Shown: positions 14,040-58,095 of the stretch, piece after piece
How the letters are laid out: each line of letters begins with the position of its first letter
How positions within the stretch are numbered: position 1 is the first letter of the stretch
From: an uncultured Anaerolineae bacterium
GTDB lineage: Bacteria; Chloroflexota; Anaerolineae; JAFGEY01
Assembly (NCBI GenBank): GCA_964481205.1
Contig: CAYZYE010000003.1
Span: 857 to 64,856 of the forward strand
DNA: 64,000 bases
Reading direction: 5' to 3'
Position numbers and translations under genes: made by a program
Notes under the pieces: generated by a model
Told to the model about the DNA's origin: nothing
The model's input: only the letters and a program-made list of their open reading frames with translations
The model's database searches: none

Positions 14040-14235
14040 CCGGATCTGGCGATCCGGCAGCCGAACAAGATAAATGCGACCAGCCTCGCCTCGCCGTTTT
14101 TGGCCTGGATTTGGCAATCCAGGCCGAGCAAACCGTGGCCGCGGAATCCCCATTCCGCCGTCACCCTATGACCCCCAAATTGAAATGGGTGTGTTTCAAA
14201 TAATTTGGGCGTCCGTAGCATAGCCCCTTGTGGGC
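14040..14235. repeat. Cluster of REP-like hairpin repeats, upstream of the 14326 ORF
   Basis: Hairpins CTGCCGGATCTGGCGATCCGGCAG, GGCCTGGATTTGGCAATCCAGGCC, CGGCGGAATCCCCATTCCGCCG. A ~55-bp block GGGTGTGTTTCAAATAATTTGGGCGTCCGTAGCATAGCCCCTTGTGGG also occurs inverted at 50100-50165. Confidence 0.65.
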
Positions 14236-14280
14236 GCGGCCGGCGCCGTCCGTATACGGCGGCGCATTTTGCTGCCTGAC

Positions 14281-14300
14281 CAAAAAACTGCTATACTGGG
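14281..14300 (+). promoter_or_regulatory. Putative sigma70-like promoter (TTGCTG-17 nt-TATACT) for the 14326 ORF
   Basis: The hexamers were read directly. The spacing is 17 nt. Confidence 0.3.
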
Positions 14301-14325
14301 GGCATCGCTACACTTGGAGGTGGTT

Positions 14326-14847
14326 ATGAGCCAGTTGCTTTATCTCGACGCCGGCCAGACGGTCACTTTTGAACTTGAAAACGCGGTGCCGATCTTGCGC
14401 GAGCGCTATGCCTCGCCGCAAGCGGGCGTGATCGAACTGCGCGGCTTTTTCAACCCCAAAGCCTATATGGAAACGCTCGACGGCGTGCGCTATCGCATGC
14501 TCTCGGCGAAACACGACAAGCGATACCCGGGGCAAATCGCTTACCCGGTCGTGCGTTTGCCGGACAAAACCGAGCTTTTTCGTCTCTTGACGCCGACGGT
14601 CGCCTTGAAAGAAAAACGAGGGCCGGCCAAATTGCGCTTTACCACCGTGTTCGACGACCAGGCCTACATTTTCAAGCGCTCGACGCGGCTGGGACGGGCA
14701 TTTGAAATCTGGGATGGGATGGAGATGCACCGCGTGGTACAGCGAGAACGTGCGCCCAAGTTGATCCTGGACTCACTCGTGTTGATCGAGGCGCCGGCGC
14801 TGCTGGTCTTGCTTTTGCCCTGGTTCGACAGCCAGTTTCTGAATTAG
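14326..14847 (+). CDS. Hypothetical protein (174 aa)
   Basis: The ATG at 14326 has a GGAGG RBS 5 nt upstream and a putative TTGCTG-17-TATACT promoter. No recognisable domain. Hairpin repeats lie on both sides. Confidence 0.4.
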   Translation: MSQLLYLDAGQTVTFELENAVPILRERYASPQAGVIELRGFFNPKAYMETLDGVRYRMLSAKHDKRYPGQIAYPVVRLPDKTELFRLLTPTVALKEKRGPAKLRFTTVFDDQAYIFKRSTRLGRAFEIWDGMEMHRVVQRERAPKLILDSLVLIEAPALLVLLLPWFDSQFLN

Positions 14848-14924: not shown

Positions 14925-15060
14925 TGGGGCGAAACCGGGCCTCGGAATAGGGATTCCGAGGCTGCGGATTGGACAAACCGTGGCGGCGGAATCCCCACCT
15001 GTGGCGGCGGAATCCCCATTCCGCCGTCACCCCCTGACCCCCAAAATCGAATACACCCAG
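14925..15060. repeat. Second REP-like hairpin cluster, downstream of the 14326 ORF
   Basis: CTCGGAATAGGGATTCCGAG and a tandem GTGGCGGCGGAATCCCCA(CC/TT)... repeat the motifs of 14040-14235. Confidence 0.6.
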
Positions 15061-28446: not shown

Positions 28447-28530
28447 GCAAAAATAACCATCCCCCGTTGCTCTCGCCGGATTTGGCAATCCGGACCGGGC
28501 AGGCCGGGACAATTTAAACTCGGGAACTCG
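28447..28530. repeat. ~75-bp direct repeat copy 1 (CGTTGCTCTCGCCGGATTTGGCAATCCGG...AATTTAAACTCGGGAACTCG)
   Basis: A second copy lies at 28722-28800. It shares the GGATTTGGCAATCC hairpin with 14101-14124. Confidence 0.65.
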
Positions 28531-28721
28531 AGCCCAACATGATCGGATGAAGGGATTATACTCTGCTTTGAACCCCCTGACAAGAAAAATTTGGCGATCG
28601 GGTTGCCGTCCAACCATGCGCAGATTTAGATTTGTGGTATAATTTGCTGCGCTCGACCAGCCCTGCTCTGGGCTGCGTTTGAATGCCCATCGAGCGCGAT
28701 AAGGCGTTTCCAGAAAAACAA

Positions 28722-28800
28722 CCAGCGTTGCTCTCGCCGGATTTGGCAAGCCGGGCAGACTGGGACAATTTAAATTCTGGAACTCGGCAATCAAAGTTCT
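28722..28800. repeat. ~75-bp direct repeat copy 2
   Basis: The same block with small substitutions. Confidence 0.65.
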
Positions 28801-32456: not shown

Positions 32457-32543
32457 CCGCTGAAAACCCAGCATTAACCAAGGACACCGAGATCGCCCCA
32501 TATTGGTGAATATCAGCGGTGTCAAAAGATGTTTTATTTCTTT
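32457..32543. repeat. Intergenic repeat family R2, copy 1 (CCGCTGAAAAC...GTGAATATCAGCGGTG...GATGTTTTATTTCTTT)
   Basis: Shared blocks with 57876-57985 (same orientation) and 38693-38833 / 53021-53115 (inverted). Confidence 0.65.
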
Positions 32544-32703
32544 ACGATCTTGGGTTCTTTTGAGATGTTTTTCAGCATATTCCTATGACAGCACCACGCA
32601 AGCGATCAAGTTGACAGCACAAGCAAAGTAACGATAATAAGGACATTGACCAACATCCGGGCGCAGCCCACCAGACCCGCACACGTCGGATCAGCAAACG
32701 TAT

Positions 32704-38440: not shown

Positions 38441-38466
38441 ACAGACGGCGCTGACCCAAGAACTTG

Positions 38467-38592
38467 GAGCTGTTCAATTCTAATTTGTGACTAAAGTCAC
38501 CGCTGGTGAGGACTCGTCGCCGTAGGGGGACGACCAGCCAACGGCTCACCCAACGCGGTTTCAACCGCTGGATTGTAGAATTGAACAGCCCT
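38467..38592. repeat. MITE-like element copy A (~125 bp) with perfect 15-bp terminal inverted repeats GGCTGTTCAATTCTA
   Basis: Read directly. It contains the internal hairpin GTGACTAAAGTCAC. An inverted copy lies at 42262-42430. Confidence 0.8.
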
Positions 38593-38692
38593 GCCCAAGA
38601 ACTATTGCGCCCAATTTTCCGCTCCCGCCGGCGGGGATTTGTCAATCCCCTTGGGACAAAAGCACAAATAGTCTCGGAGCGTGCTGCCCCCC

Positions 38693-38833
38693 AGCGCACA
38701 CCTGCCAACCGCAGAGATCGCCGAGAGCGCAAAGAGACAAGACATCAGCGAATACCGCAGAACACCGCTGGTATTCACAAATACAAGATAACCTCTGTGT
38801 CCTCTGCGGTTAATCTCGAGTTTTTCAGCGGTC
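38693..38833. repeat. R2 family copy 2 (inverted orientation), abutting the DUF881 gene stop
   Basis: CACCGCTGGTATTCACAAATAC...GTTTTTCAGCGGTC is the reverse-complement image of copy 1. Confidence 0.6.
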
Positions 38834-38835
38834 TC

Positions 38836-39504
38836 CTAGTTGATCGGTTCTGCGTATTCAAAGCCGGTCTGCGAACGGCAAACGGGCAAAACGAGCCGCT
38901 TTTTTTGCTCGCTTTGCAGAACGAGGTTGGGAGAAGCGTGTCGCAAGAGGTCGACGACGCCGCCCGGACGGAGGATCGCCGTTTCCAGGGTGCTTGGGTC
39001 GCCGATGGCTTGAAAGCGAAAGGGTTGGCGGATCGGGTATCCGTCGAGGATCAGTTGATCGTCGTTCAGGGTCAACACCGATTGCGCAACCAGCCGCTGC
39101 TCGTTCAAGGCAATAGCTTCGGCGCCGGCGTTGCGCAGCTCGTTGATCAGGTCTTGCAGATCGAGGACACTTGCGGGGCCGTCAATGACCAGCTCGATGC
39201 CCGGGCCGGAAACTTCGATCTCGCCATTGACAATCTTGACCCGGTTCATTTCTTCAACCAACTCTTCGAGCACCGTGCCACGCTTTTTTTCCTCATACGC
39301 GGCCAACTGCGTTTGCAGTGATTCGACCTCGCCGCGCAGGTTTTGGTTGGCGTTGACCAGCTCGCAGAGCAAAACCGCTCGATCATCGGCGTTGAACGTC
39401 ACCGCCCGCGCGCGGTTGTGCGTGCGCATCTGGGCGACGATCAAAACGCCAATGGCCAGGGTCAGACAACATTGACCGATTTGAGAAAAAATGCTGCGTT
39501 TCAT
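38836..39504 (-). CDS. DUF881 family protein (YlxW/YlxX-like, division-associated)
   Basis: N-terminal TM, coiled coil, and a conserved GPG(I/V)EL(V/I)IDD...GAEAIA(L/V)NG...GDP block. Confidence 0.7.
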   Translation of the reverse strand: MKRSIFSQIGQCCLTLAIGVLIVAQMRTHNRARAVTFNADDRAVLLCELVNANQNLRGEVESLQTQLAAYEEKKRGTVLEELVEEMNRVKIVNGEIEVSGPGIELVIDGPASVLDLQDLINELRNAGAEAIALNEQRLVAQSVLTLNDDQLILDGYPIRQPFRFQAIGDPSTLETAILRPGGVVDLLRHASPNLVLQSEQKKRLVLPVCRSQTGFEYAEPIN

Positions 39505-39558
39505 GCTCGACTCGGCTGTTTAGCACTTGGGTGGATTTGGAATGTCCCGTCTGTAAGG

Positions 39559-40290
39559 CTATTGGCTTCCGGGCTGGGCAAAAGATTGGGGGATGCTGCC
39601 CCGATAAGCCGGGATCGTCATCGACTCGACACGGATGAACTCGAGCCGCAGGCCAAACCGGTCGGCGCGGGTTTTGATTTTGCGCAAATAGCCCGGATTG
39701 TGCAAAAAGTCTTGCAGCCGTACCACATCGCCGATGGCGTTGATCTGGTATGGCGGAGAGAGGCGCGTGTCGTTCACCAACACCGTCGCGCCGACGCAAT
39801 AGATTGACGAGTTGTTGACGATGCGTTCGCCGTTGACGGCAATGGCCTCGGCGCCGGCCATCCACAAGATATTGATCACATCGCGCAGGTCGTAATCGTG
39901 AACCAGGGCATTGTTGGCCTCGCCGCTGCCTGTCGTTGACGGCCCATCGTCCAGGATCACCTGGACGCCGGCGCCGCGAACGCCGGTCAACCCGGCATAC
40001 GCCTTTTGCAAGAGCAATTCGGCTTGTATCTCTTGCAGCATCAAGGTTTTGCCGGCCGCGTGCTGTTGCCGCTCGTCGAGTTCTCGGCGCAGGTCCGAGA
40101 TGACCCGTTTGAGTTCCTGCTGTTCCAATTCAAGCTGCTGAATGGTTTGCTCGATCTGATTGGGCGTGTGAAACCGCTGCGCGGCGGTCGTCGGCCACTG
40201 CACACTCACCAACACGCCGAGCAAAAGCGCGGCAATCAGCATCGAAATCTGTTTGGCTTTCACCGAATCCCTCTTGCGCCTGATAAACAA
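39559..40290 (-). CDS. DUF881 family protein (paralog), probable TTG start
   Basis: Same conserved blocks as the neighbouring gene. The first codon, read from the DNA, is TTG. Confidence 0.65.
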   Translation of the reverse strand: MFIRRKRDSVKAKQISMLIAALLLGVLVSVQWPTTAAQRFHTPNQIEQTIQQLELEQQELKRVISDLRRELDERQQHAAGKTLMLQEIQAELLLQKAYAGLTGVRGAGVQVILDDGPSTTGSGEANNALVHDYDLRDVINILWMAGAEAIAVNGERIVNNSSIYCVGATVLVNDTRLSPPYQINAIGDVVRLQDFLHNPGYLRKIKTRADRFGLRLEFIRVESMTIPAYRGSIPQSFAQPGSQ

Positions 40291-40320
40291 AAAAATGCAC
40301 CCAACGGTGCATTTTTTTCA
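40287..40320. terminator. Bidirectional A-tract/hairpin/T-tract terminator between the lipoprotein gene and the DUF881 gene
   Basis: AAAAAAA-TGCACC-CAAC-GGTGCA-TTTTTTT was read directly. Confidence 0.4.
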
Positions 40321-40342
40321 AACAAAGCGTCCATACAAAATG

Positions 40343-40858
40343 CTAGGGCTGGGTAATGAGCAGATCATAGTTTTTCTGATTGTCCAGCAGCCGGGTTTCG
40401 CCCGGTACGGGCAGCACGTGTACGCTCAAGTGATATTCATAGCTGAATGGAATGTCGGTGTCTTTGAAATGAAAGAGCTTGATTTCCCCCGGCGCGATGG
40501 CGTCGATGACGCCTTGTTTTTCCAAAAAGGGCTTTTCGTCCTCTTTGCTCAGTTGAACCTGGACGGTAATGTTTTGTTCTGCGCGGATCCCGGTGTTTTC
40601 TACGGCAACCAAAAGCGTGATTCCCTCTCCACGCTTCCTGCGCTCCATAATCTTGTCGTATTCCAGCGGTGGATCGAAATCGACGGCCAACACCGCCATC
40701 CCATGTTCTTCAACCTTGCTTTTTTCAGAATCCGTGTGCGATGCGGGAGCCGCCGGCGTGCGATCAACCACCTGGATTTTGATGCACCCACTTTGAGCGA
40801 TGGTTGCCAACACCAAGATCATGAACACGGCAATGTTCAATTTCTTGCTGGATGGCAT
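40343..40858 (-). CDS. Hypothetical lipoprotein
   Basis: The ATG at 40856-40858 has an AGGAGG RBS. Lipobox-like IAQSGC. No known domain. Confidence 0.5.
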   Translation of the reverse strand: MPSSKKLNIAVFMILVLATIAQSGCIKIQVVDRTPAAPASHTDSEKSKVEEHGMAVLAVDFDPPLEYDKIMERRKRGEGITLLVAVENTGIRAEQNITVQVQLSKEDEKPFLEKQGVIDAIAPGEIKLFHFKDTDIPFSYEYHLSVHVLPVPGETRLLDNQKNYDLLITQP

Positions 40859-41038
40859 ATCAACCTCCTGTGTAACGGTCTGGCCTATCGCCATCGAGAG
40901 TGTTGTCAGTCATATCGACGCAGCTATATGCTCACTTGGCACGTTGGCTTGCGCAAAACCCTCCAGACAGGCGAACCGCTACCCTAAAAACCCGAACGAT
41001 CATACTGACAATGATCATACTGCAAATAACCAGATTTG

Positions 41039-42223
41039 TCAAACCGGCGGCGATACGTGAAAATTGCGTGAATTTTTCCCCGCTTTGGGTTTGCCGATCA
41101 CCAGCAACTCGTGCGTGTGGTTGGCCTTGTACACGCGGTTTTCGCGATCGATGTCGGCGCGGAAGCGTTTGAATTTGATCCGCCGCAGCTCGACCCCGGT
41201 GCAAAATGTCTCAAACAGCGCCAACAGCCGGTCCTCGGCGAGCAGCCCCTCATTGTTGTACGAAAAGAGCACATAGTCCGAGTTGATTCGCTCAAAAAGC
41301 CGCCTGAATCCGGCCTCGACAGCGCCGCGCATACAAAACACGGATCGCTGCACCTGCGCGCTGCGCAGGCCGGTCACGCCGCGCGGCTCGAACCGCTCCA
41401 GGTCCCAGCGGGCGATCGTTTCCAGAACATGGTAATTGGCGGCATACTGGCGTTGGTTGTACGGCGGGTCAATGTAAATGAGGCGCAGTTGGCCGGGGTG
41501 AAAGAGATCGAGCAGCGCGGCACTGTCCCGGCAAAAAACACGGTGGTGTTCAGCGGTGTGATGAGATGGAATGGGCTGCAAAGCGATCATTTTGAGCGGC
41601 TTTTGCGCCGACTTTTTGATCTGTTTGAGGTACGCGCCGTACACCGACGCGGTGTTGGCCACGCGGTCGGCGGACTCGATCAGGCAGGCAACGAGCCACG
41701 CCTGATCTCGCGCCGAGATCAGCCCCTCGTCGCGCCATGCCTCGATCTGGTCACGGATGGCCTGGATGCGCAGCCCATTCTCTTGCGCATAGTACATTCG
41801 CCCCGCCGCGCCGCCCTGACAATAGGCCTCGTAAAACGGCCCGCGCCGCCCCGGCAGTTGGCTCAGGTAGCTCAAGACGCGCGTGCAGGGCAAATCATCG
41901 ACCGGCGCGCCCCGGTTGTCGATCGAATAAGCGAGAATGTCGTCCAGGGGAACGCCAGAGACGCGCTTGCGCCAGCGCGGGTCGCGCAGCAACGTCTCAA
42001 AAGCCGGAAACGCATTGTGCTCGATCAAGGCGACATTGGTCACATACGAGTAATATTGCCAGTCGTTGGCAAAAGTCATGTGCCCGCGTCGCTTGAGCAG
42101 CTGGGCGACCGCGCCCGTCCCGGCAAAGAGATCGAGGGCCGCGCCGTCGCGCGGCACGCCGTACTCGTCCAACGACCGTTCGATTTCGGGCAGCAAACTG
42201 TATTTTGAGCCGATATAATTCAT
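41039..42223 (-). CDS. Dam-family (D12 class, alpha group) N6-adenine DNA methyltransferase, orphan
   Basis: Motif X MNYIGSKYSLLP, motif I LDLFAGTGAV, motif IV IYIDPPY. No adjacent nuclease-like gene. Confidence 0.8.
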   Translation of the reverse strand: MNYIGSKYSLLPEIERSLDEYGVPRDGAALDLFAGTGAVAQLLKRRGHMTFANDWQYYSYVTNVALIEHNAFPAFETLLRDPRWRKRVSGVPLDDILAYSIDNRGAPVDDLPCTRVLSYLSQLPGRRGPFYEAYCQGGAAGRMYYAQENGLRIQAIRDQIEAWRDEGLISARDQAWLVACLIESADRVANTASVYGAYLKQIKKSAQKPLKMIALQPIPSHHTAEHHRVFCRDSAALLDLFHPGQLRLIYIDPPYNQRQYAANYHVLETIARWDLERFEPRGVTGLRSAQVQRSVFCMRGAVEAGFRRLFERINSDYVLFSYNNEGLLAEDRLLALFETFCTGVELRRIKFKRFRADIDRENRVYKANHTHELLVIGKPKAGKNSRNFHVSPPV

Positions 42224-42261
42224 GGTTGCCCGTTCTGCTTGCCCACGAGGGGCGACGGCCA

Positions 42262-42430
42262 GGGCTGTTCAATTCTACAATCCAGCGGTTGAAACCGCGT
42301 TGGGTGAGCCGTTGGCTGGTCGTCCCCCTACGGCGACGAGTCCTCACCAGCGGTGGCGTCCACGCAGGTGGGACGCCCGGCCTTGGCCCGCCAGCGGTGA
42401 CTTTAGTCACAAATTAGAATTGAACAGCCC
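42262..42430. repeat. MITE-like element copy B (inverted; carries a 44-bp internal insertion relative to copy A)
   Basis: The reverse complement is identical to copy A apart from the insertion CGGGCCAAGGCCGGGCGTCCCACCTGCGTGGACGCCACCGCTGG. Confidence 0.8.
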
Positions 42431-42457
42431 TAGGGCGACGGCGCAGCCGGCCTTGTA

Positions 42458-50099: not shown

Positions 50100-50165
50100 A
50101 CCCACCCACAAAGGGCGATGCTACGGACGCCCAAACCATTTGAAACACACCCAATGAAACACTCC
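50100..50165. repeat. Inverted copy of the 55-bp block seen at 14185-14235
   Basis: The reverse complement reads GGGTGTGTTTCAAATGGTTTGGGCGTCCGTAGCATCGCCCTTTGTGGG. Confidence 0.6.
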
Positions 50166-53020: not shown

Positions 53021-53115
53021 GCACCCGCTCACCGCCGAGATCGCAGAGAAACAAAACACCTGGAAACACCGCAGATATTCACAAACACAGAATAATCTTG
53101 GCGTCCGTGGATTGA
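53021..53115. repeat. R2 family copy 3 (inverted orientation), upstream of the histidine kinase gene
   Basis: GAGATCGCAGAGAAACAAAAC...CACCGCAGATATTCACAAACAC is shared with copy 2. Confidence 0.55.
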
Positions 53116-57875: not shown

Positions 57876-57985
57876 CCGCCGAAAAACCCAAGATTAACCA
57901 AGGACGCTTCGGATAAAGTCAAACCGCGAACGCAGAGATCAAAGTTTGTGAATATCTGCGGTGCTACTGGATGTTTTATTTCTTT
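57876..57985. repeat. R2 family copy 4 (same orientation as copy 1), upstream of the hybrid kinase gene
   Basis: CCGCCGAAAAACCCAAGATTAACCAAGGAC...GTTTGTGAATATCTGCGGTG...GATGTTTTATTTCTTT. Confidence 0.65.
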
Positions 57986-58095
57986 GCAACCTCGGCACTC
58001 TGCGATCAGGAACTCGATCAGCACGCTCCTAGATGAAAATTCCATCTTGGAGAACGACAAAAACTTTTTATCAAGACTCGCCACAAGGGCAAACT

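Follow-up and report, generated by a model that had tools for sequence, protein, structure and literature searches.

Two copies of one short element lie in opposite orientation in a 64,000-nucleotide stretch of contig CAYZYE010000003.1 from an uncultured Anaerolineae bacterium (hereafter the window), with four minus-strand genes between them that include a solitary D12-class N6-adenine DNA methyltransferase. Copy A is a short form of 129 bp on the plus strand (38465-38593), and copy B is a long form of 173 bp, inverted relative to A, on the minus strand (42260-42432). The original prediction had likened this arrangement to a composite mobile or cassette structure and had offered a structured RNA or regulatory module as the alternative. 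We found that the element is very probably a miniature inverted-repeat transposable element (MITE) of ISAs1 type, and that the two copies are independent insertions whose bracketing of the genes is incidental. The 3.7-kb segment was not brought in as one piece, nor has it been inverted since the insertions. The observations that carry this reading are the anatomy of the element, its target-site duplications, its dispersal, the link between its terminal repeat and ISAs1 transposases, and the synteny across the copy B site.

The boundaries of both copies were placed by their target-site duplications. The predicted location of the element was upheld, while its edges proved to lie 2 bp further out on each side (1 bp at the right end of copy A). 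When copy A was aligned with the reverse complement of copy B, identity between the 14-bp core repeats was 100% save for a 44-bp indel, confirming that these are two near-identical inverted copies; the indel and two terminal bases are the only differences between them. The additional 44 bp are present in copy B alone, at approximately 42344-42387, the exact placement being ambiguous owing to the 9-bp direct repeat CACCGCTGG that bounds them, and such a repeat is the mark of slippage, whether by deletion or by duplication. The terminal repeats occupy 38465-38482 and 38576-38593 in copy A and 42260-42277 and 42415-42432 in copy B. They had been described as perfect over 15 bp; instead, the perfect repeat is 14 bp in copy A (GCTGTTCAATTCTA) and 17 bp in copy B. 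The left end of copy A reads TGGAGCTG where the family consensus reads TAGGGCTG, and the consensus terminal repeat is 18 bp, YAGGGCTGTTCAATTCTA, at both ends, with a 14-bp core that is perfect in every copy. This 14-mer core occurs 4 times in the window versus 0.19 occurrences expected by chance. The internal hairpin GTGAC-TAAA-GTCAC is present as described, at 38487-38500 in copy A. Neither copy has any coding capacity, since spurious open reading frames (ORFs) alone run through them, and these features support the earlier description of a mobile element that has terminal inverted repeats at its ends and needs a transposase in trans.

Exact 10-bp direct repeats, which the original prediction had overlooked, abut both ends of each copy. 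Copy A is flanked by CCCAAGAACT on the left (38455-38464) and on the right (38594-38603), and copy B by GGGCGACGGC on the methyltransferase side (42250-42259) and on the side of the neighboring gene, which encodes an A2M-like protein (42433-42442). Because ten bases at a set offset would agree exactly by chance with a probability of about 1e-6 per element, we regard these repeats as target-site duplications. The reconstructed empty sites read ...GCGCTGA-CCCAAGAACT-ATTGCG... for copy A and ...GCAGCCGGCC... for copy B, where the duplicated sequence is GGGCGACGGC. The repeats differ in sequence between A and B, and the flanks on the outer sides of the pair agree at 0 of 10 positions. A lack of target-site duplications had been named in advance as evidence against a mobile module; what we found was one pair per copy, which argues against a composite. 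In the mechanism that we propose, a DDE transposase of the ISAs1 family, encoded at another place in the genome, would move the 129/173-bp MITE in trans, and every insertion would create a 9-10-bp target-site duplication. Copies A and B would then be independent insertions into intergenic DNA, and the bracketing of four genes would be a by-product of two nearby insertions.

The methyltransferase gene is the last gene of a conserved array that encodes UDP-glucose dehydrogenase, YjbQ, a ComB-type phosphatase, the A2M-like protein, and the methyltransferase. This gene order is common to the window and to loci L022 and L023, whose methyltransferase is 67% identical to that of the window. We compared synteny across the copy B boundary, from 49891 to 41081, and found the window to be collinear with positions 760-9143 of L022 straight across the copy B site. 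At L103, from a second relative, the product of the gene upstream of the methyltransferase is 47% identical to the A2M-like protein of the window. In both L022 and L103 the stop codon of the A2M-like gene overlaps the methyltransferase start codon (ATGA), and there is no element at the junction. In the window, copy B begins 37 bp ahead of the methyltransferase ATG, with 36 nt in between, and lies 25 bp downstream of the A2M-like stop codon, and when copy B and one duplication are removed, a 51-bp spacer remains between the two genes. Since the block is collinear in relatives that lack the element, copy B must have landed inside a conserved gene array. Collinearity with L022 stops after the methyltransferase and not at a MITE. 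Synteny of the bracketed block without the repeats in relatives was another result that had been said to count against a mobile module, and we observed it at the copy B boundary (in L022 and L103), which was the boundary compared. Copy A lies where a glycosidase-like gene and a DUF881 gene converge, between their 3' ends.

We also found the element dispersed at other loci. A 20-mer from its left end matched 17 metagenome contigs, 13 of them in Ga0256846. Twelve of these 13 have full copies or copies clipped by the contig end, and one (L008) has a 44-bp remnant. Nine Ga0256846 copies are complete, each in different flanks; eight are of the long form, with 165 nt between the repeat cores (162 in L005), and one, in L015, is of the short form, with 121 nt. 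The copies clipped by a contig end are those in L004, L011, and L016, all in Ga0256846, and in L017. Exact 10-bp duplications were found at L010, L012, L013, and L015, and imperfect or shorter ones at L018 (9 of 10 positions matching) and at L005 and L019 (9 bp). The dispersed copies are 88-100% identical to copy B, that in L010 being 100% identical over 174 nt. The contigs bearing the MITE have a GC content similar to that of the window and other short repeats in common with it, and by these sequence features they probably come from the same organism or closely related ones. A dispersed repeat was what the original prediction had itself set down as an argument against its cassette, and such a repeat was found, on 13 Ga0256846 contigs with distinct flanks in addition to the two window copies.

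The short form, with an identical 44-bp deletion, was seen both as copy A and at the unrelated locus L015, where it has its own 10-bp duplication, indicating that the deleted form has itself transposed. Two independent short-read assemblies with an identical methyltransferase gene terminate inside copy B, which is expected, since assemblies break at repeats. The remnant at L008 (1591-1634) has kept the left terminal repeat, has a degenerate right end, and has a 9-bp direct repeat, GCGTAAGGG, on either side; it resembles a MITE that has lost nearly all of its interior by deletion while keeping its duplication. A search of the 23-mer left end against one genome per species returned 0 matches, which means that these representatives include neither the source genome nor a near relative with the element. 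Three AT-rich contigs from other metagenomes (L003, 757-779; L009, 595-617; L006, 1465-1487) have 23 nt (GCTGTTCAATTCTAATTTGTTTA) in common with the MITE left end. These matches fall within long ORFs from low-GC organisms and have no transposase in their vicinity, and we rejected them as copies of the element and treated them as chance or an unrelated conserved coding motif.

To the terminal repeat we could attach a parent transposon family. The 18-mer CAGGGCTGTTCAATTCTA was scanned across one genome per species and was present at at least 74 genome loci, with about 35 chance matches by a uniform-base estimate. Among the matches listed, it clusters in particular metagenome-assembled genomes (MAGs) of Bacteroidota, Lentisphaerota, Desulfobacterota, Chloroflexota, and others. 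At least 17 of these loci have a gene for an ISAs1-type transposase directly inside the repeat, and at four or more (at least L101, L038, L049, and L076, all in other genomes) inverted 18-mer pairs bound elements of 1200-1231 bp, the size of an insertion sequence (IS). The element at L101 (3846-5045), in an Anaerolineae MAG, encodes a protein of 366 amino acids (gene L101:3930-5030) that scored 216 bits against NF033564, the ISAs1-family transposase model, for which the cut-off is 70, and that also matched PF13808 and PF01609. Sister MITEs with the same 18-bp repeat, unrelated interiors, and exact 10-bp duplications were found, in an Anaerolineales MAG, at L054 (4036-4197) and L073 (4647-4807) and, in Bacteroidales, at L031 (4165-4357) and L035 (6577-6800); a further element with the same ends lies at L098 (7196-7578). 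The exact 18-bp end is common to ISAs1-type ISs and several MITE families across Bacteroidota, Chloroflexota, Desulfobacterota, Lentisphaerota, and others, a cross-phylum conservation that is unusually strict.

ISfinder defines the ISAs1 family by ends of the form CAGGG... together with direct repeats 8-10 bp long. The family of the window element has the ends C/TAGGGCTG and duplications of 9-10 bp. An IS630/Tc1 or IS5 transposase had been suggested as the mobilizer, and the CAGGG... ends, the length of the duplications (9-10 bp), and the transposases that the same repeats enclose elsewhere point to ISAs1 in its place. ISArsp11, a member of the ISAs1 family, has ends CAGGGCTG..., an inverted repeat CAGGGCTGATGC..., and a 10-bp direct repeat (PMC6305408).

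Several observations weigh against the reading of independent insertions by an ISAs1-type MITE. No ISAs1 transposase was found in the window or in the fetched Ga0256846 contigs, and we infer that the genome with the MITE contains, or formerly contained, one. Apart from its outermost 20 or so bases, the MITE has no similarity to the L101 IS, and given that it has no interior likeness to the ISs seen, it is not a simple deletion derivative of any of them. Neither the L101 IS nor the complete copy in L007 has a recognizable duplication. Finally, two copies of the same subfamily within 3.8 kb are more clustered than sparse random scatter would give, and local hopping or some site preference may lie behind this clustering.

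Both MITEs and the ISAs1 family are well known, and this element is a further MITE with ISAs1-type ends. Like the ISAs1-family ISs (ISAs1, ISEc1/H-repeat, and ISArsp11), it has ends that begin CAGGGCTG and a 9-10-bp duplication, and a repeat identical to its 18-bp end bounds 1.2-kb elements with NF033564 transposases. Unlike them, it is 129/173 bp long, lacks a transposase, and has an interior unrelated to the ISs that we found, so that it would be a non-autonomous passenger. Bacterial MITEs such as the Correia elements of Neisseria, the MaeMITEs of Microcystis, and MITEAba12 are shorter than 600 bp and have terminal inverted repeats and target-site duplications, and the window element resembles them in these respects and in being multi-copy, intergenic, non-coding, and folded as a long hairpin. 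It differs from them in its repeat sequence, its 10-bp duplication, and its Chloroflexota-type host; Correia elements, for example, duplicate TA. We found no paper in the literature that describes an ISAs1-derived MITE, which is weak evidence of absence. In Microcystis, hundreds of MITE copies lie beside ISAs1 and other ISs (PMC2779907).

It is very unlikely that the element is, or has become, a functional structured RNA or regulatory module that sits at operon boundaries and influences expression of the methyltransferase, for instance as an attenuator, RNA-stability hairpin, or promoter. The predicted folds are very stable (-90.6 kcal/mol, z = -7.5, for copy B and -57.5 kcal/mol, z = -5.7, for copy A), and copy B, close to the methyltransferase start, separates a gene pair that in relatives is coupled at translation. 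Transcript fate is also known to be influenced by other intergenic repeats, Correia and ERIC elements among them. The stability comes mainly, however, from the 18-bp terminal-repeat stem, as in any MITE. Rfam had no match in the window at the gathering threshold, or around copy B even at E<=1. Across 15 copies a compensatory change was seen in 0 of 31 consensus pairs and the covariation term was +1.22, which is unfavorable, the low divergence among copies limiting the power of this comparison. There is no sigma-70-like promoter or intrinsic terminator inside either copy, and the occurrence of copies in unrelated contexts with duplications indicates transposition rather than placement. The Rfam and covariation results thus speak against the structured RNA that had been proposed as the alternative. 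We infer that the insertions are functionally neutral, although an incidental effect on transcripts may exist, especially from copy B near the methyltransferase start.

Quite improbable, too, is that the 3.7-kb segment is a latent composite or invertible unit that could be moved by an ISAs1 transposase or by RecA, or that copy B has rewired methyltransferase expression by splitting the coupled A2M-like/methyltransferase pair; of these readings our evidence contradicts the past-movement version only.

We judged it highly improbable that the inverted copies are the ends of a composite MITE-bounded transposon, a 4-kb unit that brought in the methyltransferase, lipoprotein, and DUF881 genes. Gene-carrying MITE-bounded units are known elsewhere, and as in MITE- or IS-bounded composites (integron mobilization units and Tn10-type elements) two near-identical inverted copies of a terminal-repeat element flank a few genes, here four. 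The genomic context of the methyltransferase also varies among more distant relatives. Composites moved as a unit, however, have one duplication at their outer ends, whereas each copy here has a separate, matched 10-bp duplication and the outer flanks have nothing in common (0/10). The copy B boundary moreover cuts a conserved array: the five-gene collinearity with L022 crosses the site, and the methyltransferase start and A2M-like stop overlap in L022 and L103. The GC content of the segment is not sharply set apart from that of its flanks, and the segment may comprise more than one transcription unit, to judge from the promoter-like site that lies between the genes for the methyltransferase and the lipoprotein. 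On the strength of the duplications, the outer flanks, and the position of copy B inside the collinear block, the composite or cassette structure had to be abandoned. A recombination switch, in which the two inverted and essentially identical 129-bp sequences, separated by 3.7 kb, would flip the segment by homologous recombination, is scarcely credible, because matched duplications on either side of both copies mean that there has been no net inversion between them since insertion, two other assemblies have the same methyltransferase-side junction, and all four genes would merely swap strand with no obvious switchable promoter.

The four minus-strand genes between the copies are as originally described, by Pfam and translation. 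They encode the methyltransferase (41039-42223; PF02086, E=2e-30), a putative lipoprotein of 183 amino acids (40343-40894) with no Pfam match and a lipobox-like ...AQSGC motif read from the translation, and two DUF881 paralogs (39559-40290 and 38836-39504). The lipoprotein and DUF881 genes (38836-40894) show no sign of being cargo. A near-consensus sigma-70-like site, TTGACA-17-TATGAT (11/12), lies on the minus strand at 41042-41014, where it overlaps the final bases of the methyltransferase gene upstream of the lipoprotein and DUF881 genes; a site placed between the methyltransferase gene and that of the lipoprotein is a hint that the four are transcribed as more than one unit. The closest named homologs of the methyltransferase are in Chloroflexota/Anaerolineae MAGs, and the window also encodes housekeeping genes, for example mnmG and tilS. 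There was no exact match on record for the 222-amino-acid DUF881 protein or for a flanking protein of 923 amino acids, and these look-ups yielded no further contig across copy A and no allele with an empty site.

Homologs of the methyltransferase occur in several other settings. At L024 (444-1553), L026 (2867-3976), and L027 (762-1910), a protein of 369-382 amino acids with no Pfam match is encoded immediately before methyltransferase homologs that are 68-69% identical to that of the window. For the L024 protein a weak match to a NucS-like nuclease was seen (E=1.5e-4, well short of the cut-off), and it may be a restriction partner; the window encodes no homolog of it. In the window, L022, L103, and L104, a large unrelated gene precedes the methyltransferase, and its stop overlaps the methyltransferase start in L022, L103, and L104. 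At L020 (8001-11957; GCA_054920995.1) a homologous methyltransferase lies two genes upstream of dnaA, a location in keeping with an adenine methyltransferase that in some lineages is resident, solitary, and possibly tied to replication. A DDE_5 transposase adjoins the methyltransferase homolog in L027, and there is no match to the 14-bp repeat core at that locus.

The window contains other short intergenic repeat families, at 14135-14186 and 15001-15052, at 14186-14234 and 50105-50153, at 28455-28530 and 28716-28786, and at 32503-32553, 53034-53086, and 57944-57996. One such pair forms an 88% direct repeat around an ORF of 205 amino acids (14230-14847) without a Pfam match. Several of the short repeats recur on MITE-bearing Ga0256846 contigs, and in L012 one adjoins the MITE (518-601, 97.6% over 84 bp). 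A 29-bp sequence just to the right of copy A (38626-38654) was found with 93% identity at L005 31-59 and L018 1627-1655 and may be another small repeat near MITE insertion sites. The genome appears to be rich in small repeats.

Our results give a clean negative, in that what appeared to be a mobile methyltransferase cassette is best read as two unrelated small-repeat insertions. With the failure of the cassette reading, the methyltransferase is best regarded as a gene resident on the chromosome. The element itself belongs to an active-looking ISAs1-type MITE family in a probable Chloroflexota lineage for which metagenomes are the sole record, and transposition has occurred in both the long and the short form. 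Several phyla have the exact 18-bp ISAs1-type end in common, and several MITE families with unrelated interiors have arisen from it. Knowledge of this family should be useful for repeat annotation and for accounting for contig breaks in these MAGs.

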